A program made the position numbers and the translations under genes. Shown piece after piece: positions 8,506 to 42,004 of a DNA stretch of 55,135 nt. This DNA is from a virus. Position 1 is the first letter of the stretch. Every line of letters begins with the position of its first letter. The stretch lies in the UHGV virus genome UHGV-0258472. One strand, written 5' to 3'. A model generated the notes under the pieces. It searched no databases, was not told where the DNA came from, and worked only from the letters and a program-made list of their open reading frames with translations.

Positions 8506-8664
8506 AATGCTCTCTCCTTTTCAGGTGATTTCTACGCATTTCAGCGCTGCCGGATTTTTAAAGAGCATTTTGTTTGCTTGAAGTATACAAAATGGATACG
8601 TGCTAACAAGGTGTAAAGCGCCATTATGTGACATTCATCACACAATGACGCCATTTTGTAAACT

Positions 8665-12143: not shown

Positions 12144-12242
12144 TTTGGCTTCCTCCGCACCGTAAACCTTTCGATTTCGGTTTACATAACGGATATGCGA
12201 TCATAATACAAAATGTATATTTATGTGATCTGAATCACTCTG

Positions 12243-15925: not shown

Positions 15926-16406
15926 GATCTGATCTCCTTATATCCTTGATGATACTTAATAAAAAATCATCTTCGTTAATTGCCGCACTTCCAGCGGCTG
16001 ACCAGATTGTTAAAGAATGGCTTAACATCTTTCAACTAATCCCGCAATCATCGCCGTTTCCGGTGTGACCCTGCTCACTCCAAGCAAGCTGACTCGTCGC
16101 CTTGCGTGCGGTTTCGTGGGGGATGTGACGCTTTAGACACCCCATGCGCCTTGTTATCAGTGCCGCTTTCGGTCCCCCATCGGGGAGTTACTCCACGGTT
16201 GACAAGGTGTTAAGCCTGATTTTTAAAGTGCCAGGAAGGCGCTTTTTGTTTCCTGCCTCCTTCCTTTGATTCGCAATATACGCCCTGTGATATACCGAGT
16301 CAATCCATTTTGTATACTTTTTTAAAATATTTTATATATCATTGATATTTAAATTATAAAAACAGTTTTTTGGTTTACGTTTTGGTTATTTTACGGGCAA
16401 AGAAAG

Positions 16407-16428: not shown

Positions 16429-17076
16429 TTATGGCAGGTTTACGATCTTCGCGTCAACTACCACACCTATGATTTTAGATTCTGGATTCATAGGGATTGG
16501 CGGATACAGCGGATTGAGCGAACGTAAAAGCCTTTGACCTCCATCAATAACAAGCTGTTTAAACGTAGGTGTTTGCCCTTCCTCCAGTTGGGCTATAACC
16601 AGTTTTCCGTCAATAGCTGGCGCGTGCGGATCGACAAGTATCATCGTCCCCGCTGGTATACTCAATCCTTGCGGCGCGTTCATTGATTCGCCTTTAGCTA
16701 CCAGCCAATAACTATCATCTGAACAAATAACGCTAGTCGTAACGTGTGGTAATGTTGCTCGCCTTGTATCTTCCATATTGTTTACTGCGTCCTTCCAGTC
16801 AACAACCGGGTAACTACCTAAATCACGCGGCGGCGCTCCCGGTAATGTATTAGAAATAGAATCATCTATGACCATTCCATCGTGTGTAACAGTGAATTGC
16901 CGACGCCCAAGCGCCCGCATGATACGCGCAATATCTTCAAGATTCGGCTCGCGGCGACCGTTCAGCCAGTGTGACAGGCCGCCTTTAGTTATCCCCATGA
17001 GATCCGCGAGTGAATCCTGGCTCATGCCTTGCGCCCGCATGAGTTGCTTTGCTAAGTCGTACCATTTTGTTTTCAT
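16429..17076 (-). CDS. CI-type prophage repressor (XRE HTH plus LexA-like S24 peptidase domain)
   Basis: N-terminal HTH (SQDSLADLMGITKGGLSHWLNGRR) and C-terminal Ser-Lys autopeptidase region (GESM ... KQLVIDG); ATG at 17076. Confidence 0.85.
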   Translation of the reverse strand: MKTKWYDLAKQLMRAQGMSQDSLADLMGITKGGLSHWLNGRREPNLEDIARIMRALGRRQFTVTHDGMVIDDSISNTLPGAPPRDLGSYPVVDWKDAVNNMEDTRRATLPHVTTSVICSDDSYWLVAKGESMNAPQGLSIPAGTMILVDPHAPAIDGKLVIAQLEEGQTPTFKQLVIDGGQRLLRSLNPLYPPIPMNPESKIIGVVVDAKIVNLP

Positions 17077-17200: not shown

Positions 17201-17380
17201 AAAAAAGATAATGGAAAGCACAAAAAGGCACATACCTTAAAAGCTCTTTAAAAATCCGGTGTCGCTGCGAAGCGAAAAACAAATATCACGCAACGGCGGG
17301 ATCTGTTGAGCGGTCAGTCACTGCTATCTAATGCTAATGGGATACCCGCCAGCGCGTTCACTCTAATCATAGGAGAAAAT

Positions 17381-29098: not shown

Positions 29099-29275
29099 CG
29101 CAATGACTCCATTATGTTAATTAACGGAATAATTCTACCATTTTGTGATCTATGTTACATTTTTGACTTATACAAAATGTATTTATTGATTTATATCAAT
29201 ATACGAAATGTGGTTTTGTCGGATATTTAAGCCACCGGATGAACCGGATGAGCTAACAAGAACGAGGATTAAAAA

Positions 29276-34432: not shown

Positions 34433-34963
34433 TTAACTTACAACGTCTAAGGCGTCTTTATTGTTTGTTGTGTCTATGCCTAACGATCCGACGTTTGAAC
34501 CCACTTTCATTTCGCCCAATAAAATTGGCACTGGTCTACCCTGGCCCACCCTGTTTTCTATGCTGGTGTAACTGTTGTTTGTTATGGTGTTATCCTGTGC
34601 GCTTTCTGATGATGTTTTCACCTTCATGTTGCGAGACATGAAAATAGAAAATGCGACACTAACAACTGATATTCCGATCATAATCCAACCGATCACACCG
34701 ATCCCTGCAATACCACCTTCCACTATTGGCGCAATAATTACCGTAGTCCCATCTGGATATTTGCTATTAACCGCAGCGGGCGCGGTCTTTTCGTCGTAAT
34801 CTTTCCCGGCAATTCGTAAACGCAAAGGTGTATTTAAAAACGCCTTCTTGAATTCCTGATTCTGCGCGGTCAACAAGCGAAGTCCTTGTGCTGGCGTTTC
34901 AACGTTTAAATACACTTTGCTGTAATATCTTCGAAGATTGCCCGTAAATCTAAATTTGAGCAT
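34433..34963 (-). CDS. tail assembly protein (lambda I-like)
   Basis: Position between K-like and J-like genes; hydrophobic central segment and C-terminal region typical of gpI. Confidence 0.65.
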   Translation of the reverse strand: MLKFRFTGNLRRYYSKVYLNVETPAQGLRLLTAQNQEFKKAFLNTPLRLRIAGKDYDEKTAPAAVNSKYPDGTTVIIAPIVEGGIAGIGVIGWIMIGISVVSVAFSIFMSRNMKVKTSSESAQDNTITNNSYTSIENRVGQGRPVPILLGEMKVGSNVGSLGIDTTNNKDALDVVS

Positions 34964-35637
34964 TTATCAGATCTCCATATTGAATGCGTTTGTCGAACAT
35001 AAGCGGGCCGCATTTGCTCGCGGCGGCTTAGCAGTCCGGCATTGTCATGATGCAAAACAGTGTTATCTCCCAGGTAAATCATCGCGTGGCATGGGTCAGC
35101 ACCCTTGAACGGCTGCCGGATAATTACATCTCCAGGCTGGATGCTTTGCGCGTCAACCTGATAAAACCCGTTTAGCGGCAAGTTTTTTAAATACAGGTTT
35201 TCACCACGCAACCACCACCCATCAAGGCGCTCGAAGTCGGGCAGATCCACGCCGCAAAGGTGATAGGCGTCGCGGAAAAGCGCGTAGCAGTCTGTTTTCC
35301 CGTGTTCAAATTTTCTGCCTAACAGGTGCGCTACCGGACGGAATTTCCTGATCCTTCCGCCTGAATACAAAAGCCAGGGTAGCCCTGAAATAACTTGCTG
35401 TTGTCGATCCCGTGCCGACAATACCGGAATATCATCAACGTGAGAGTGAAAAACGGCGGTTATAACGCCCAATTCGTCAGCTTTGATGTAATCGTCCGGC
35501 GAAATTTTGAAGCTGTTGTATGGTGTTTCAGACACGTTAGCGCACGGGTAAAAATATTCGTTATCTATTACCAGTCCGCAAACTTCTTCAAACTGATGCG
35601 CGGCGGCATAACGCAACATTTTGTCTTCCATTACCAT
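34906..35637 (-). CDS. tail assembly protein (lambda K-like; MPN/JAB plus NlpC/P60-like)
   Basis: AVFHSHVDD (MPN-type HxH) motif and Cys/His peptidase region; start chosen at ATG 35637 just after L-like stop. Confidence 0.65.
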   Translation of the reverse strand: MVMEDKMLRYAAAHQFEEVCGLVIDNEYFYPCANVSETPYNSFKISPDDYIKADELGVITAVFHSHVDDIPVLSARDRQQQVISGLPWLLYSGGRIRKFRPVAHLLGRKFEHGKTDCYALFRDAYHLCGVDLPDFERLDGWWLRGENLYLKNLPLNGFYQVDAQSIQPGDVIIRQPFKGADPCHAMIYLGDNTVLHHDNAGLLSRREQMRPAYVRQTHSIWRSDKCSNLDLRAIFEDITAKCI

Positions 35638-35639
35638 GA

Positions 35640-36344
35640 TTAACCTACCTTGCTGGAACCAGGGAAACAGGAGATTGGTAGCGGATTTGGACGCGGGAAA
35701 CGCAAACGACAACCGCTTAGACGGTGGCTGCATCTGTCGGCTTTAGGATCGCTTGTCGGCTCGTCTTTATCGTTTGCCACTGGTCCGCCAGAGTACATAC
35801 ATCCGTCGCCTCTGTATTGCCACTGGCAAACGTCAGCAAGGATGGTGCGCCCAGGGATAACGGCCTTATCAGCATCAATTGGCGTTGACAGCTCATATTG
35901 CACCTGATCCGCTGTTTCCTCGCTCATGGCCTCCACGACATAAAAAGATACAGCCTCAATAGATGGATCTGCGTCTGGATTGCCGTTATGGAAGTTAACA
36001 GCGTCCAGGTATTTTACTTCCACCTGGCGGCGCGTTACCTTCATTCCTCTAAGGTCGTTGAAATCGTTATTCATCCCCGTAATAAGTCCGCCGATGTTGG
36101 CTACAACCATTTGGGGACGTGAGTAAACGCCTTCGTTTTTCATTTCGAAGCCAGTCGCTTCGATCGGGTAGCTGTTGTAAGCTACTCCCTTCCAGATAAC
36201 CGGGCCGTAATATCCATTCGCGCCGGAATGGAAGCGGATAACCTCGCCTCCCAGTGGCGTAAGGTCCAATTCAAACAAGTCAATTACCGCGCCGACTCCG
36301 GCATCTACGGAATCAATAATCATCTCTGTAGGTATATTGCGCAT
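35640..36344 (-). CDS. minor tail protein (lambda L-like)
   Basis: C-terminal Cys cluster and RFPRPNPLPISCFPG motif typical of gpL; ATG 36344 with SD aaaggtga. Confidence 0.7.
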   Translation of the reverse strand: MRNIPTEMIIDSVDAGVGAVIDLFELDLTPLGGEVIRFHSGANGYYGPVIWKGVAYNSYPIEATGFEMKNEGVYSRPQMVVANIGGLITGMNNDFNDLRGMKVTRRQVEVKYLDAVNFHNGNPDADPSIEAVSFYVVEAMSEETADQVQYELSTPIDADKAVIPGRTILADVCQWQYRGDGCMYSGGPVANDKDEPTSDPKADRCSHRLSGCRLRFPRPNPLPISCFPGSSKVG

Positions 36345-36473
36345 TTTCTCACCTTTCGCTTTTTTGTGATCTGCATCACGCTAAATCATACCGAAATGGT
36401 TGATCGCGCTTTTTACAATATGTATATTTTACTCAAACGAAGTGGTAGTTAACAAAATGGCGCGGGGTGATTT

Positions 36474-36638
36474 ATGGTTGCTAAATTGTGGAAGCTAACA
36501 CTATTCATGAACGATGGAAGCGAAAGACTGATTGCACTATATGACGACGAAGGCGAGGCGCTAATAGACGCGCTTGAGCTTTCTGAGGATAGCCGCGTTT
36601 TGGGATACAGAATTAAACCTGTAAAACGTGAGGTTTAA
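36474..36638 (+). CDS. hypothetical small protein (54 aa), moron cassette B
   Basis: ATG 36474 with SD ggggtga; antisense to tail genes. Confidence 0.4.
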   Translation: MVAKLWKLTLFMNDGSERLIALYDDEGEALIDALELSEDSRVLGYRIKPVKREV

Positions 36639-36642
36639 CAAA

Positions 36643-37044
36643 ATGCAAAAGTATCGTCTCGATGTATGGATGGCAGGAAGTAATGACTGGGAAGGTTACG
36701 GATTGCATGATAGTTACGAAATGGCGGTAGAGGAAGGGGAAAAACTTGTTCGCTTCTTCGGTCGCGCCAGGGAATTCAGAATAACTCCTGTACAAATAGC
36801 CGAGAAGGTGGAAGAGATGAACCCGAAAGATATTAACTTTAACGTCAATGTTGATTTTGCTGATTCTATGGATCAGTCTTGCCCTGGTGAAATACACGCA
36901 AAAGGTTTCCCGGCAGACGATCCAGAAGCAAAACGCGAATACGAAAAGCGGCAAAAGATTTCTGTATCGATAACCTGGGCGCGTTCGATAAATAAGGTGG
37001 CAGTATGGCGCGGCGTAATCACGGTGATTATGTGTACACGTTGA
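36643..37044 (+). CDS. hypothetical protein (133 aa), moron cassette B
   Basis: ATG 36643 with SD gtgaggt. Confidence 0.45.
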   Translation: MQKYRLDVWMAGSNDWEGYGLHDSYEMAVEEGEKLVRFFGRAREFRITPVQIAEKVEEMNPKDINFNVNVDFADSMDQSCPGEIHAKGFPADDPEAKREYEKRQKISVSITWARSINKVAVWRGVITVIMCTR

Positions 37045-37253
37045 AACAGGCCGCCCGCCTTATCGGTTATCATGAACACGAATTTATTGATTTGCTGATT
37101 GAGCGCGGGATACTGTACCAGGTCTGTTTAACACTGTACCCAAAAGCGAAATACCTACAGGAAAAGTTATTCATCATCATGACGGATGAAAACCAGGTTA
37201 ATCACTCATTCGTCACTGATAAGGGGTTAACATACTTAAGGGAAACATTATGA
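37005..37253 (+). CDS. small HTH DNA-binding protein, moron cassette B
   Basis: ATG 37005 with SD aaggtgg; LKQAARLIGYHEHEFIDLLIERGIL HTH-like segment. Confidence 0.45.
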   Translation: MARRNHGDYVYTLKQAARLIGYHEHEFIDLLIERGILYQVCLTLYPKAKYLQEKLFIIMTDENQVNHSFVTDKGLTYLRETL

Positions 37254-37332
37254 TATGTGTGATCACTACATATTAGAAGTGATTATTATAATAATAGGAT
37301 TATTGTTTATTCTGCTATCAACAATGTAAAAC

Positions 37333-37349
37333 CCCGCTTCGCGCGGGGT
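37333..37349. terminator. bidirectional-looking GC hairpin terminator
   Basis: ccccgcttcgcgcgggg flanked by T-rich sequence on both strands. Confidence 0.45.
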
Positions 37350-37354
37350 CGTGT

Positions 37355-37540
37355 TTATACGCCATCAAGTAAGAATAAAACTTCCTTGCCTTCTCTCGAT
37401 CTGCATCCAACATAACCGTCACCAACATCATGAAGATACCATGTATCACCATTATCAGCTTTTACAGTAAGATCGTTGATCTCGTAGTCGTCAAACAATG
37501 TAAAAGCGCCCGTGCGGTCAACTACACAAATACCATACAT
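37355..37540 (-). CDS. small protein of the early-region paralog family, located inside the tail cluster
   Basis: ATG 37540 with SD ggaggt; GDTWYLHD / hydrophobic-D-x-G motif shared with 2406..3354 genes. Confidence 0.4.
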   Translation of the reverse strand: MYGICVVDRTGAFTLFDDYEINDLTVKADNGDTWYLHDVGDGYVGCRSREGKEVLFLLDGV

Positions 37541-37551
37541 ATTAACCTCCA

Positions 37552-37905
37552 TCATCTGACGACTTGCTCAAATGTTGCGTTTAGCGTGCATACCGGGCCG
37601 TCTTTCGTCATGCTCCACTTTCTACATACAAAAAGCCTTTGCACCCCGTCAGTGGATGGAGTCCAGTAAAACGCCTCGACCGCGCAACGTGCTCTTAAAA
37701 ATGCGTCAACCTGTAGCGCTACGTTTCCGTCGTCACCGCATCCGGCGCTCGTACCCTTAAAGACCAGCGTATAGCTATCAAGTAAAGGGTTAATCCCTTT
37801 TGTCTGCCTCTGTTCATACCCATCACCCAGTTTAATGACAGACACGTTAGGCTCACTGTTTACGCTGTAGCTTCTTTGTGGTGTCCATCGGAACACTTCA
37901 GGCAT
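37552..37905 (-). CDS. minor tail protein (lambda M-like)
   Basis: 117 aa; N-terminal EVFRWTP motif typical of phage minor tail protein M; ATG 37905. Confidence 0.65.
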   Translation of the reverse strand: MPEVFRWTPQRSYSVNSEPNVSVIKLGDGYEQRQTKGINPLLDSYTLVFKGTSAGCGDDGNVALQVDAFLRARCAVEAFYWTPSTDGVQRLFVCRKWSMTKDGPVCTLNATFEQVVR

Positions 37906-38072
37906 AAAACCCCCTATAAGTTACATTTTGTATATACCTTTACGCGATTCTACGCGAAAAATGAGATCTTCATCACAATGATTATAGCCAGTTTTCAAAA
38001 TGGCTTCACTTTGGAAATCACATATTGTATACAGAAAGCAAATAAGAAAGACGTTGCACAAAGGGGGATGTT

Positions 38073-38327
38073 ATGAAACTGGTAGCGATTGACAAAAACC
38101 TGAAAGCACAGAAAAACGCACAGGACCGGATCATCAAGAAAGGCAAGGAACTTCTTAAAGCATTTTTGAAGAAAGAAGCCCACCCCAAAAAGTTACGCGA
38201 CGGATACGGTTTTAAATTTGACATCAACCCAGATTGGCGGCTGTTCAGTGAAGACCTCAAGGTATGGTTAATCATCGATCATCTTGAATACAACAGGCAC
38301 TGCGGAGTCAAAGGGGCGCATAAGTGA
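38073..38327 (+). CDS. hypothetical basic protein (84 aa), moron cassette A
   Basis: ATG 38073 with SD agggggat. Confidence 0.45.
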   Translation: MKLVAIDKNLKAQKNAQDRIIKKGKELLKAFLKKEAHPKKLRDGYGFKFDINPDWRLFSEDLKVWLIIDHLEYNRHCGVKGAHK

Positions 38328-38335
38328 GGCGTGAT

Positions 38336-38428
38336 ATGGAAGACGATAAATTCACCTGGCGTGAGATCTGGAACATCTGGCAAGTGATGTTTGCTCGCAG
38401 CTACATAGCAAGAAACGGAAGATTGTAA
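38336..38428 (+). CDS. micro-ORF (30 aa), moron cassette A
   Basis: ATG 38336 with SD gtgagg. Confidence 0.3.
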   Translation: MEDDKFTWREIWNIWQVMFARSYIARNGRL

Positions 38429-38481
38429 TTTGCGGAGGAAAATAAAATGAAAACCCGGCAAATAAAAGCAATGTAAAACGT

Positions 38482-38616
38482 ATGGCCTGGATCGTAAAAT
38501 GGATGGATAGTAAAGGAGATACATATACTGAACCATTTTTCAAACATACTGACGCAGTATTTGCAAGAAGTGTAAGAGGCGGGAAAATTGAAAGAGGATA
38601 TACAAGTTTTGAGTAA
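38482..38616 (+). CDS. micro-ORF (44 aa), moron cassette A
   Basis: ATG 38482; no clear SD. Confidence 0.25.
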   Translation: MAWIVKWMDSKGDTYTEPFFKHTDAVFARSVRGGKIERGYTSFE

Positions 38617-38654
38617 ATTTATTTATGTGATTAATAGCACAGTGGAGATTGATA

Positions 38655-38834
38655 ATGATTATTAACGAAACGGAAGAATGCAGACGTATTACTCTTAGCA
38701 TTGAGTATGACGAAAGATTATGGCTTGAGTGCGACTGCGAATTGATCGTAATAGATAAAAAGCAAGCCGCAGAACTAATAAAGGCATTACAGCTTTATGT
38801 AAACGGCGAATTTAAAAATGATGAAATTGAATAA
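38655..38834 (+). CDS. hypothetical small acidic protein (59 aa), moron cassette A
   Basis: ATG 38655 with SD agtggaga (ORF-track first codon is TTG). Confidence 0.4.
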   Translation: MIINETEECRRITLSIEYDERLWLECDCELIVIDKKQAAELIKALQLYVNGEFKNDEIE

Positions 38835-38841
38835 AAGATAA

Positions 38842-38860
38842 CCCCGGCACAATGCCGGGG
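38842..38860. terminator. bidirectional rho-independent terminator between cassette A and tape measure gene
   Basis: ccccggcacaatgccgggg hairpin with T-runs on both strands. Confidence 0.55.
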
Positions 38861-38866
38861 TTATGT

Positions 38867-41206
38867 TTATTTGCGACGAGGTTGTAATATTCCGCCTGGT
38901 CTTTGTGATTCCCTTGTTATCATTTTCATTGCTACACGTTCCATTGTCTGCTCAAGTCTGCGGCTGTCATCGTCGCTAAATCCGTTTGTGGTCTGAATGT
39001 TGATATTGACAGGCATACTAATGCCGCCGCCACCGCCAATATCACGCCCAGGAATAATTCTGCCATTCTCGCCAGGGATCATATATTGATTTCCGTTAGA
39101 TGTCTGGAATAGCTCCGGCCTGTTGTGTTCCCCTACACGGTACATATTGCCACCAATGACGCTACCACCATTAAAGCGTCCTCCGCCAAAAATTGACGTC
39201 GCCAGCGACATGATCGCAGAAAGCGCCGCCGCACCAGCCGCCGCCCAGCTACCACCAGTTGACGCAGCCGTTGCCGCCGCTGCCGGGGCCGCCGCCGCAG
39301 CAATCTGGCCTTGTGCCGCTACCGCGCCAGCCGTGGTACTTGCCTGCGTTGCCTTGCTTTGTGTCTCCATCATGATTTGATCTGCTATCCAGTCAGCGGC
39401 TATATCTGAAAGTCTGCTACCAATATTGCCGAGGATATTGCTACCTAAGTTAGCAAAAACATCGCTCAATGATTGAGTACCGTTTAACAGACCAACAAGC
39501 GCATTGCTCATACCACCTTTAAGGCCATTAACGCAATCACCGATCAGGCCGTTAGTGTCGCTTTGCGCCTGCCATTGCTCCCACTTCAGATCGCGGATCT
39601 GCTGCTCATAGGCTAACAATTCCTGTTTCTGTTGCGCTTCGGTAGCCCCCAGGTCGATAAGCATTTGCTTACGAATTGCCCATTCATTCTGTACCTGCTG
39701 AATAGGGTCAACCTCGCCTTTTAGCTGGTCCATCGGGCTAACTATTTGCGACCATTTATCACGCAATTCATCTACAGGGATTTGCGCTAATTCTTCCTTC
39801 AGTTCCTTGCCTATCCCTTTTTGCGCGGCGCGGTACTCAAGGATGGTGATTTTACCCTGGGCGAATGCAGCATCAATGGCCTTGCCGTTCTCTAATGCTT
39901 TGCGCATGGCGGCGGCGTCTTTGTTGTACTGGTCAGAAACGCTTATGCCTTTGTCACCAAGCCGATCAGCTTCTGATTTCTTCTCTTTTTTCGGTTTTTT
40001 CGGCTTATCAACTGGCTGATCGAATCCGGTGATCTTGCCGTCGTTAGCCTCACCCTGTTTCTGCATGAACTCATCATAAGCGGCAGTCGCGTTTTTAATA
40101 TCGTTTGCAAACGTCATAACCTTGCCGACGGTAGGGCCGAATTTTTTCTCGTTGTTGCTGTTTAGCTCTTCCTTGCGTTTATCGACAATTTCCTTCATCC
40201 ATTTGTAGCCATCCATTAGCGCTTTTATTGGCGTTACCATTCTAATGATCTCTTCCGCCACCTCACCAGCCTTAACAGCCACGTCGTCAAACATGTCGAT
40301 GAATTCGCTACCAGCCGTTTTGAGTGTATCGAAGCATGTTTTAGCAAATTTAGCGCCCTCGCCAAGTCCTTTAACGCCCTTCGTGATTAAGTCGATAGCT
40401 GATACCACGCCGTCTGATACGCCGAAAAGATCGTCCAACTGCTCAACAAGGCCCATGATCTCTACTTTAAGCTCATTGATAGCCATACCGGATGTGCGCG
40501 GCAACTGAGCAAACTTATCGTTTGTTTCCTGCGTAGCCGCCTGGATCGCGTTGACCATCCTTTCAGCCGTGATCTTGCCGTCCAGCATTTCTGCGCGGAA
40601 CTGGCCCATTGATAATCCCATCTGGCGGGCCATTGTCTGTACGATGGTCGGGGTGTTCTCAAGAAGGCTGTTGAATTCTTCAGCACGGAGTACGCCGCCG
40701 TCGATAGCCTGGCGGAACTGGCGCATTGAGTTAGACATCTGTTCCGCTGATGCACCACCTAACGCTCCCATTTTCTGAATAGTGCCAACAAGGTTAAGTA
40801 ACTGGCCTTCAGTAGCGGATGTGTTCTTTAATGAGATGGCAAGTCCTTGCCATAATTCGCCAGTATCTTTCAGGCTCTGGCCTGTTTCTTTCGATATTGC
40901 TTTCAGGCCGTCGAAAACCCGTCCGGCGGACTCCGCATCGCCAGTAAGCATTTTGATTTTTACGCGTAGCATTTTTGCTTGTTCCGCCATATCCATAAAT
41001 TGGCGCACTGCTTCCGCAGCAAGTAGCAGATGGATGACCCTGGTCAGTGCTTTGATGGATGTTTTCAGGGTGTTTACCTGGCGGTCAGCCTGTTTTGCGC
41101 CGCGCTCTATACGGTCAAAGGCCTGGTCTGCCTGTCGTTGTGCAACGAGAAGTTGACCAGTTTTTGCATCAACCTCGTAATAAATTGTACCTACACTGGT
41201 AGCCAT
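38867..41206 (-). CDS. tail tape measure protein
   Basis: 779 aa, Ala/Gly/Gln-rich with long helical segments; position upstream of M/L/K/I/J; ATG 41206 with SD gaggt. Confidence 0.8.
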   Translation of the reverse strand: MATSVGTIYYEVDAKTGQLLVAQRQADQAFDRIERGAKQADRQVNTLKTSIKALTRVIHLLLAAEAVRQFMDMAEQAKMLRVKIKMLTGDAESAGRVFDGLKAISKETGQSLKDTGELWQGLAISLKNTSATEGQLLNLVGTIQKMGALGGASAEQMSNSMRQFRQAIDGGVLRAEEFNSLLENTPTIVQTMARQMGLSMGQFRAEMLDGKITAERMVNAIQAATQETNDKFAQLPRTSGMAINELKVEIMGLVEQLDDLFGVSDGVVSAIDLITKGVKGLGEGAKFAKTCFDTLKTAGSEFIDMFDDVAVKAGEVAEEIIRMVTPIKALMDGYKWMKEIVDKRKEELNSNNEKKFGPTVGKVMTFANDIKNATAAYDEFMQKQGEANDGKITGFDQPVDKPKKPKKEKKSEADRLGDKGISVSDQYNKDAAAMRKALENGKAIDAAFAQGKITILEYRAAQKGIGKELKEELAQIPVDELRDKWSQIVSPMDQLKGEVDPIQQVQNEWAIRKQMLIDLGATEAQQKQELLAYEQQIRDLKWEQWQAQSDTNGLIGDCVNGLKGGMSNALVGLLNGTQSLSDVFANLGSNILGNIGSRLSDIAADWIADQIMMETQSKATQASTTAGAVAAQGQIAAAAAPAAAATAASTGGSWAAAGAAALSAIMSLATSIFGGGRFNGGSVIGGNMYRVGEHNRPELFQTSNGNQYMIPGENGRIIPGRDIGGGGGISMPVNINIQTTNGFSDDDSRRLEQTMERVAMKMITRESQRPGGILQPRRK

Positions 41207-41455
41207 AATTTAACCTCATACAAAATGTGATCTATGTCTCTATTTTATACAAAATGGCTTCATTTCAACGAATACATTTTGTATAAAGAAGGTGAAGGAT
41301 GAGAGAGATAAAAGAAGGTCGAAGGATATAAAGGATTAAGACTTGAAGCACAGCTAACCGATGGAACGAGGGAGGCGAAAACCCCTAAAACTAAGGAAAC
41401 AGCAAAGGGATTTAAAAGGCCGGATTAACCGGAGGAAGCAAAAGAGGATAAGAAA

Positions 41456-41545
41456 ATGAAAAACGTAAACTACCGCCCCAACGAACATGAACGCTATGCG
41501 GACTTCATCGAAGAAATGTTAAAAGCACTTAAAAACAAAAATTAA
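41456..41545 (+). CDS. micro-ORF (29 aa), moron cassette C
   Basis: ATG 41456 with SD agaggata. Confidence 0.35.
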   Translation: MKNVNYRPNEHERYADFIEEMLKALKNKN

Positions 41546-41556
41546 GCGAGGCGCAC

Positions 41557-41664
41557 ATGGATACCATCAAAAGCATCATAGAAGTGTATATATCAGCATG
41601 GGTGGCTTTTAATGTAATGGCTGTATTCGTGCTGGCATTAACAATAAAAGGCGAATGTAAATAA
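41557..41664 (+). CDS. small hydrophobic peptide (35 aa), moron cassette C
   Basis: ATG 41557 with SD gaggcg; single TM-like segment. Confidence 0.35.
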   Translation: MDTIKSIIEVYISAWVAFNVMAVFVLALTIKGECK

Positions 41665-41675
41665 GGCGGTGCATC

Positions 41676-41978
41676 ATGGAACTAGTAATTCTCTTTATTG
41701 GATTTGTGGTAACTATGGTTGTAGCCGAGAAAAAACATCTTAATATGTTCCTTGCATTTATTGGCGCTCTGATTTGTTGGCCTGCTGTATTGATTTACGC
41801 CCTATGCGTCAACAAGAAGATGTTTAAACACTACATAGATGCTTTAACTTTCGTCAACATGGAGTTTTCTGACGCAACTGACGTACAGAAAGCACAGATC
41901 GCGACTTATCTTTACGATAACGTGTACACAGTCCATGATTTAGAAGAGGCAAGATGGCGCTTTGCAGCATACAAATAA
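41676..41978 (+). CDS. small membrane protein (100 aa, two TM segments), moron cassette C
   Basis: ATG 41676 with SD aaggcggtg; hydrophobic N-terminal half. Confidence 0.5.
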   Translation: MELVILFIGFVVTMVVAEKKHLNMFLAFIGALICWPAVLIYALCVNKKMFKHYIDALTFVNMEFSDATDVQKAQIATYLYDNVYTVHDLEEARWRFAAYK

Positions 41979-41986
41979 AAATAAAG

Positions 41987-42004
41987 GCCCGGTTAATTCC
42001 GGGC
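41987..42004 (+). terminator. rho-independent terminator after cassette C
   Basis: gcccggttaattccgggc hairpin followed by tttttcttg. Confidence 0.55.

Follow-up and report, generated by a model that had tools for sequence, protein, structure and literature searches.

The closest described counterparts of the locus analyzed here, a plus-strand gene cassette at positions 36345–37354 of the UHGV virus genome UHGV-0258472 (55,135 nt; this whole stretch is referred to as the window), are found in the mEpimmI phages, a group of Nus-dependent temperate siphophages (PMC11893012). Lysogens of these phages are mostly not inducible by ultraviolet (UV) light, their repressor lacks an Ala-Gly cleavage site, and a "KilAC-like antirepressor" was counted among the manually defined core genes of the group (PMC11893012). 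The genes gp74–gp71 of mEp021 and the corresponding loci of mEp010, mEp013, mEp044, mEp515, mEp554, and MagusPhagus have the cassette in the same position as the window, between the tail genes L and M, and share its promoter block and hairpin, with 82–87% DNA identity in these seven phages over the 1.5 kb around the cassette. They encode homologues of open reading frames (ORFs) 1 and 2 and of the KilAC protein, ORF3, the last at 93–95% amino acid (aa) identity. mEp021 differs by an additional gene of 75 aa (gp72) and by a peptide of 45 aa that replaces the 24-aa peptide of the window, where three genes and this peptide precede the terminator and ORF2 is frameshifted. The cassette is a phage accessory operon with a KilAC-family protein, and published phage genomes already include it as an annotated but unstudied locus.

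KilAC domains have been characterized on their own in three systems. On its own, the KilAC domain of AriS from Listeria inhibits the SOS response, probably by way of RecA (PMC9043618), and the KilA-C domain of phi11 Gp07 causes growth arrest and filamentation in Escherichia coli (PMC5944126). CreP, from a CRISPR locus of Acinetobacter baylyi, is a stand-alone KilAC protein of 103 aa that acts as a bacteriostatic division inhibitor and co-precipitates with FtsZ (bioRxiv 10.1101/2024.01.05.574328). AriS and Gp07 carry the same Pfam domain as ORF3, a likeness at the level of the domain, with sequence identity not measurable; both differ from ORF3 in having an N-terminal AntA/B or Bro-N domain and in lying in an early or lysogeny region. 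Like ORF3, CreP consists of a single KilAC domain with a TxKG motif and does not much exceed 100 aa. It is kept under tight transcriptional control (bioRxiv 10.1101/2024.01.05.574328), but it is longer and is repressed by a CRISPR effector through CreA. ORF3 has 82 aa, lacks the first ~22 domain positions, and is found in a phage tail operon behind a predicted CRP-type promoter.

In its anatomy, the cassette is comparable to morons, which reportedly include bor and lom of lambda and those of the HK97 type (Hendrix and colleagues). The likeness lies in a promoter–gene–terminator unit between structural genes, with lower GC content and an orientation that may oppose that of the late operon; the cassette differs in having several genes and in being fixed in every family member, with only its internal slots polymorphic. 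It is likewise comparable to lysogeny-expressed accessory loci (PMC7067206). The features of the cassette are as follows.

36365–36380, plus strand: CRP-consensus-like palindrome TGTGATCTGCATCACG (TGTGA-N6-TCACG), centred at 36372.5
36400–36428, plus strand: predicted sigma-70-like promoter, with −35 TTGATC at 36400–36405, a 17-bp spacer, and −10 TATATT at 36423–36428
36449–36459, plus strand: first copy of the TTAACAAAATG motif; a second copy at 36635–36645 holds the ORF2 start codon
36474–36638, plus strand: ORF1, an acidic, soluble protein of 54 aa (isoelectric point (pI) 4.7; phrog_29559)
36643–37044, plus strand: ORF2, a frameshifted allele of 133 aa; the native protein has 117 aa and its TAA lies at 36993–36995 (phrog_38567)
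36944–36947, plus strand: A4 run, the site of a 1-nt deletion; A5 in 51 of 51 scorable relatives
37005–37253, plus strand: ORF3, a stand-alone ANT/KilAC domain of 82 aa, with the ribosome-binding site AAGGTGG ahead of its start
37255–37329, plus strand: ORF4, a 24-aa hydrophobic single-helix peptide (MCDHYILEVIIIIIGLLFILLSTM; grand average of hydropathy 2.1)
37331–37349, no strand assigned: GC-rich hairpin with a 7–8-bp stem and a 5-nt loop, a candidate bidirectional intrinsic terminator

The 1.5 kb around the cassette was also matched in prophages of 35 of 5,426 complete E. coli genomes. By sequence, the window is the genome of an mEpimmI (mEp021-like) temperate phage of E. coli. The exact 133-aa product of ORF2 was found in a single database record, on a 55,276-bp MEGAHIT contig of ENA assembly ERZ27308837, and the window is therefore a metagenome-assembled phage genome. 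For comparison, 52 related loci were collected (8 annotated records and 44 IMG/VR contigs), giving 53 sequences with the window included. Conservation of the promoter region was scored over 40 unique relatives, and the A-run was scored in the 51 relatives in which the ORF2 C-terminal anchor was found (52 aligned loci with the window). Ratios of nonsynonymous to synonymous differences (pN/pS) were obtained from Nei–Gojobori counts in the annotated and alternative frames.

The cassette forms a plus-strand unit between the minus-strand genes L (35640–36344, PF05100) and M (37552–37905, PF05939), which are adjacent in lambda. The three plus-strand ORFs described in the original prediction, which was made from the letters alone, are present inside the minus-strand tail genes as it proposed, but a fourth gene, ORF4, had been overlooked. 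GC content falls to 0.37–0.46 over the cassette against ~0.50 in the flanks, and the GC skew turns from negative to positive precisely across 36300–37200, which fits plus-strand coding. All four ORFs are under purifying selection, with pN/pS values of 0.27 for ORF1, 0.10 for the C-terminal 44 codons of ORF2, 0.14 for ORF3, and 0.21 for ORF4 (10 unique alleles). Since alternative frames gave pN/pS above 1 or many stops, so that the purifying signal is confined to the annotated frames, the cassette genes are real.

The same place between L and M is occupied by the cassette in the seven phages, the 35 E. coli prophages, and the 44 IMG/VR contigs, and the upstream block, the hairpin, and the cassette itself were found there in 52 of the 52 relatives collected. 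The promoter block, the C-terminal half of ORF2, ORF3, and the hairpin are invariant parts, and ORF1, the gp72-like gene, and the peptide slot vary among relatives. An extra gene of 75–81 aa is present between ORF2 and the KilAC gene in eight relatives, including mEp021 (gp72); L001, L004, and L006 were grouped with those bearing it. Because it is present in every relative examined, the cassette is an old, fixed trait of the family with exchangeable small-gene slots rather than a recent insertion, and its earlier description as "inserted" was misleading.

Measured against morons, the unit has its own promoter and terminator, both predicted and both conserved in 53 of 53 sequences, and it deviates in composition, with lower GC and reversed skew, from flanking genes that are recognizable by Pfam as L and M. 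Presence and absence among close relatives, the third moron trait, was not seen; the unit is in all of them, and the internal slots alone vary. Its low GC content and mosaic gene content support the view that it has the anatomy of a phage accessory (moron-type) module, and the predicted promoter and terminator point to a transcription unit of its own that runs antisense to the late tail operon. The accessory-module part of the original prediction was upheld to this extent, by the promoter-like region, the terminator hairpin, the low GC, and the mosaic genes; the defense or toxin–antitoxin part drew no matches.

ORF4 begins 1 nt past the ORF3 stop codon and ends at the foot of the hairpin. Other relatives have either of two unrelated small membrane peptides in its place, in some cases accompanied by a protein of 67 aa, and a small hydrophobic peptide occupies the last slot in nearly all relatives. 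The GC hairpin, anticipated as a terminator from the letters alone, was recovered at 37331–37349 in all 53 sequences. It folds well on both strands (z = −3.7 for the minus strand), has the better T-run on the minus strand (GGGGTTTTAC), and is annotated on both strands in mEp021; it probably also halts unmodified transcription arriving from M.

ORF3, a minimal KilAC protein, forms the invariant core of the operon and is the gene on which the functional reading depends. It matched Pfam PF03374 with 30.9 bits (gathering cut-off, 25.3; E = 3.6e-7) over profile positions 23–105 of 108, and its homologues bear a precomputed PF03374 assignment. The TxKG signature is present as VTDKG and is invariant, and AARLIGY corresponds loosely to AKxLxL. 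The best fold matches were the DNA-binding domains of MerR-family proteins, excisionase, and RacA, which lends weak support to a MerR-like helix-turn-helix fold; the last gene, previously called only "helix-turn-helix-like," is by Pfam an ANT/KilAC domain. ORF3 forms one 50%-identity cluster among 1.8 billion representatives, accompanied by three distant multidomain proteins, and no true relative of the stand-alone protein was found in GTDB species-representative genomes. The roles of small regulator and effector, as originally proposed, are probably reversed, because isolated KilAC domains behave as effectors in the three systems described above.

The second line of evidence is the upstream DNA, which had been described as motif-bearing and proved nearly invariant in relatives. 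Between the L start codon and ORF1, a consensus scan gave the promoter a score of 9 of 12, with a predicted start near 36435. TGTGATCTGCATCACG agrees with the CRP core TGTGA-N6-TCACA at 9 of 10 positions, and five copies of the pattern TGTGAN6TCAC are present in the window, where 0.25 would be expected (20-fold enrichment). Across the 40 unique relatives, GTGAT and CAC of the site are invariant, the flanking T, T, and G are conserved at ~90%, and the central bases at 60–80%. TTGAT and a 25-bp block, TTACAATATGTATATT.TACTCAAA, that spans the −10 element and the start region are likewise nearly invariant, whereas the promoter spacer varies. Invariant half-sites and −10 block combined with variable spacers are the pattern expected of positions contacted by protein.

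The class I promoter lac P1, whose site TGTGA-N6-TCACT is centred at −61.5, offers the nearest comparison: in both cases a CRP core (matched at 9 of 10 positions here) precedes a sigma-70 promoter of moderate strength by about six helical turns. Class I sites are centred near −61.5, −71.5, or −82.5; the cassette site differs from lac P1 in that its centre is placed at about −62.5, or at −63.5 in relatives carrying a 1-bp insertion, counted from a start that is predicted and not mapped. Neither a LexA box nor a repressor-operator-like sequence was seen in the cassette promoter, and an Rfam scan of 35500–42000 gave nothing near threshold. Control by CRP is the best available hypothesis for this promoter.

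ORF2 completes the conserved part of the cassette. In intact relatives it ends with ...AAKDFCIDNLGAFDK followed by TAA, 9 nt before the ORF3 ATG, giving a native protein of 117 aa with a pI of 4.6. The window reads GAATACG-AAAA-GCGG at the A-run, and the loss of 1 nt there, seen only in the window among the aligned loci, yields the 40-nt overlap of ORF2 with ORF3. This overlap, taken in the original prediction as part of the architecture, is instead a frameshift lesion (A4 against A5 in 51 of 51 relatives); the deletion may be biological or an assembly error. Structure prediction and a profile search had been proposed as checks on the 133-aa protein. The prediction was informative for the N-terminal domain, where residues 1–52 form a β-β-α-β domain with high confidence (predicted local distance difference test above 90), and the searches returned no informative family match, only generic or uncharacterized folds. 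Residues 73–117 form an almost invariant tail that is predicted with low confidence save for one helix, and the N-terminal domain changes about five times faster at the protein level (pN 0.24–0.33 versus 0.04–0.06 for the tail). A tail that is conserved yet modeled with low confidence is as would be expected for a segment that folds on a partner.

Two other ideas about the tail were discarded. RecA mimicry was suggested by a single-sequence match to concatenated RecA chains (E = 0.011), and the match was lost with a profile of 36 homologues. As the native ORF2 TAA is in frame with the ORF3 ATG, the tail and ORF3 could be taken for a split ANT domain or a readthrough fusion, but the ANT alignment of an artificial fusion still begins at profile position 23, inside ORF3. 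Alignment of ORF2 with a 264-aa KilAC protein by hhalign gave no match. In one prophage lineage, that of the E. coli STEC308 locus (L002, 3046–3321), ORF2 has a TAG codon in its N-terminal part, and the product annotated there is a remnant of 91 aa.

What the cassette does we infer from its sequence and from the literature on isolated KilAC domains. We favor, at a probability of about 0.4, an accessory operon responsive to cAMP-CRP, with a KilAC protein that acts on host division or the SOS response, or on a repressor and hence on the lysis–lysogeny switch. Host RNA polymerase would transcribe the operon independently of the late operon when cAMP-CRP is high, a phase that would correspond to the lysogen or to early infection. 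The KilAC protein would then act on a host or phage protein, which may be the cell-division machinery, the SOS/RecA machinery, or a repressor, with the conserved ORF2 tail as its most likely partner or modulator. The cassette would be silenced by late, antiterminated transcription that crosses it in the opposite direction. A KilAC protein placed on the SOS or induction pathway, or serving as an antirepressor, makes biological sense because mEpimmI lysogens are mostly not UV-inducible and their repressor has no cleavage site.

Several observations weigh against this reading. The CRP-like centre lies at −62.5 or −63.5 from the predicted start and not exactly at −61.5, the corresponding site of a neighboring island (below) lies at about −70.5, and the palindrome could be bound by a phage protein instead of CRP. 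In ORF3 the Pfam domain is missing its first ~22 positions, and identity to the nearest multidomain proteins is 25–40%; with this gap and the low identity to characterized KilAC domains, transfer of function from these is weak. The three characterized activities, of AriS (PMC9043618), phi11 Gp07 (PMC5944126), and CreP (bioRxiv 10.1101/2024.01.05.574328), moreover differ among themselves. Finally, ORF2 is frameshifted in the window and N-terminally truncated in L002 with the KilAC gene intact in both, which argues against ORF2 being an indispensable neutralizer or essential antitoxin.

Among the alternatives, the best surviving is that of a classical antirepressor, in which the 82-aa KilAC protein inactivates the phage's own CI-like repressor or those of co-resident prophages and the cassette promoter gates a route to induction that bypasses SOS. 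Both the family name and the mEp021 and RefSeq annotations point this way, as do the mostly UV-non-inducible lysogens, the repressor without an Ala-Gly site, and the core status of the KilAC-like gene in the group (PMC11893012), and the window encodes a repressor with HTH_3 and Peptidase_S24 domains at 16429–17076. We nevertheless regard both this role and the induction route that it implies as unlikely: ORF3 is without any N-terminal domain, the promoter has neither a LexA box nor an operator-like sequence, and the cassette is distant from the immunity region.

A toxin–antitoxin-like, abortive-infection, or superinfection-exclusion module, with a toxic KilAC protein and/or peptide, ORF2 or ORF1 as neutralizer, and the lysogen protected, was also considered. 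The stand-alone KilAC protein CreP is a bacteriostatic toxin restrained by a partner system (bioRxiv 10.1101/2024.01.05.574328). The gene order, in which a protein with a folded N-terminal domain and a conserved but disordered tail stands ahead of a small conserved protein, resembles the antitoxin–toxin order of type II systems, and a small hydrophobic peptide fills the last slot in nearly all relatives; a neighboring island, moreover, has a gene with a ParE-like toxin domain. The database searches did not bear this out. For all cassette proteins, PADLOC-DB v2 returned zero families at E ≤ 1, NCBIfam models gave no match, and Pfam assigned no toxin or antitoxin family, so that the defense or toxin–antitoxin-like function proposed at the outset drew nothing from them. 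Type II systems are recognized by known families and a DNA-binding antitoxin; the cassette has no recognizable families of this kind, and ORF2 is not a recognizable DNA-binding antitoxin fold. Together with the broken ORF2 alleles beside an intact KilAC gene, this makes such a module quite improbable.

It is more doubtful still that the KilAC protein is a small MerR/excisionase-type DNA-binding regulator that autoregulates the cassette or binds the recurrent TACAAAATGTAT-type motifs close to phage promoters, with the other ORFs as payload. Besides the fold matches of ORF3 to MerR-family proteins, excisionase, and RacA, this idea draws on the 25-bp block over the −10 element and start, which is more conserved than a promoter alone needs, on the recurrence of a 16-mer of this block at 12207, and on the genome-wide enrichment of related motifs. 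Against it, ORF3 is near neutral (pI 6.9), and DNA binding by the KilAC domain is not demonstrated in the experimentally studied proteins.

The ORF2 extension and overlap could also be read as programmed frameshifting, or as an overlapping gene by which ORF2 is coupled to ORF3. Two database proteins (P0003 and P0024) also enter the same +1 frame and reach the same stop, and this frame is open for 65–69 codons in many relatives, but the shift occurs in 1 of 52 aligned loci, P0003 and P0024 shift at a different A-run, and an A4/A5 run is not long enough to slip efficiently. In the +1 frame pN/pS is 2.8 versus 0.10 in frame 0, with synonymous variation unsuppressed (pS 0.38), so that, with no selection on the +1 frame, programmed frameshifting is rejected and its chance taken as negligible.

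ORF1 occupies an exchangeable slot bounded by the two TTAACAAAATG copies, in which L002 and L007 hold a different 52-aa gene. No informative match was found for ORF1, nor any similarity to the small ORFs of the second island (below). A weak profile alignment with the ORF2 N-terminal domain (hhalign; E = 0.018, 45 columns, but a probability of 2.6%) hints that ORF1 may be a paralogue of that domain. Homologues of ORF1 (P0060, P0065, and P0069; 54–62 aa, acidic, non-hydrophobic) are named "transporter" by NCBI, and this is probably a propagated misannotation, as ORF1 is a soluble acidic protein of 54 aa.

Two minus-strand neighbors were also noted. In the interval from the cassette terminator to M lies a conserved 66-aa ORF (37355–37555, phrog_3249) that apparently belongs to the late operon; relatives have it annotated as a hypothetical protein of 61 aa. 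The longest ORF of the K-like C40 peptidase (34906–35733, 275 aa) overlaps L by 94 nt; in relatives this protein has 243 aa and starts from an internal ACAAAATG (start codon near 35617), which is probably the true start.

The tail operon is interrupted three times by antisense accessory DNA. The second plus-strand island (37906–38866) lies between M and the tape-measure gene, and the third (41207–41990) lies upstream of the tape-measure gene. Their features are as follows.

38073–38327, plus strand: ORF with a ParE-like toxin domain (PF24732, E = 6e-11), island 2
38482–38616 and 38649–38834, plus strand: two small ORFs, island 2
38838–38864: bidirectional hairpin with a perfect 12-bp stem, island 2
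41557–41664, plus strand: small membrane protein of 35 aa, island 3
41676–41978, plus strand: small membrane protein of 100 aa with N-terminal hydrophobic segments, island 3

In many relatives an extra 51-aa gene stands ahead of the ParE-like gene. A CRP-like sequence, TGAGA-N6-TCACA at 37962–37977, lies ~70 bp ahead of the predicted start of island 2, and is conserved in relatives with a variable spacer; island 3 has the CRP-like TGTGATCTATGTCTCT at 41226, ~60 bp ahead of its predicted start. Further CRP-consensus palindromes lie elsewhere in the window.

8627–8642: CRP-consensus palindrome
12224–12238: CRP-consensus palindrome
16064–16078: CRP-consensus palindrome
29144–29159: CRP-consensus palindrome

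One of these is a perfect TGTGACATTCATCACA, located ~60 bp ahead of a predicted promoter on the minus strand, after which comes the boxA-like GCTCTTTAAAAATCCGG. This 17-mer is found again on the plus strand near 17244, an arrangement that fits the nut sites described for mEp021. The motif ACAAAATG has 23 occurrences in the window, where 4.1 would be expected; most take the form TATACAAAATG(G/T) and lie in intergenic DNA beside predicted promoters, with examples at 8566, 8587, 8652, 12208, 15626, 16306, 19938, 29139, 29172, 37924, 41220, 41249, and 41275. Its reverse complement, CATTTTGTATAnn, includes a −10-like hexamer, and the 16-mer TACAAWATGTATATTT is common to 12207–12222 and the cassette promoter (36414–36429).

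The shared CRP-like sites raise a wider, decidedly speculative scheme, in which the cassette and the two neighboring islands (36345–37354, 37906–38866, and 41207–41990) would form a CRP-driven prophage "starvation regulon"; the KilAC protein would arrest growth or division, the ORF2 tail would restrain it, and the membrane peptide would assist. We think it improbable as a whole.

mEpimmI phages are reported to be as common as lambdoid phages in human gut E. coli, yet they are barely characterized. A universally conserved, separately promoted KilAC operon is an obvious candidate for sensing of the host state, or for manipulation of division or the SOS response, by the prophage, and ORF3, at 82 aa, offers a very small natural version of a domain that is still poorly understood mechanistically. 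Control by CRP is predicted for the cassette and the two neighboring antisense islands alike. If the starvation regulon were true, non-UV-inducible phages would have a nutrient-sensing, SOS-independent means of controlling host physiology, induction, or abortive infection.
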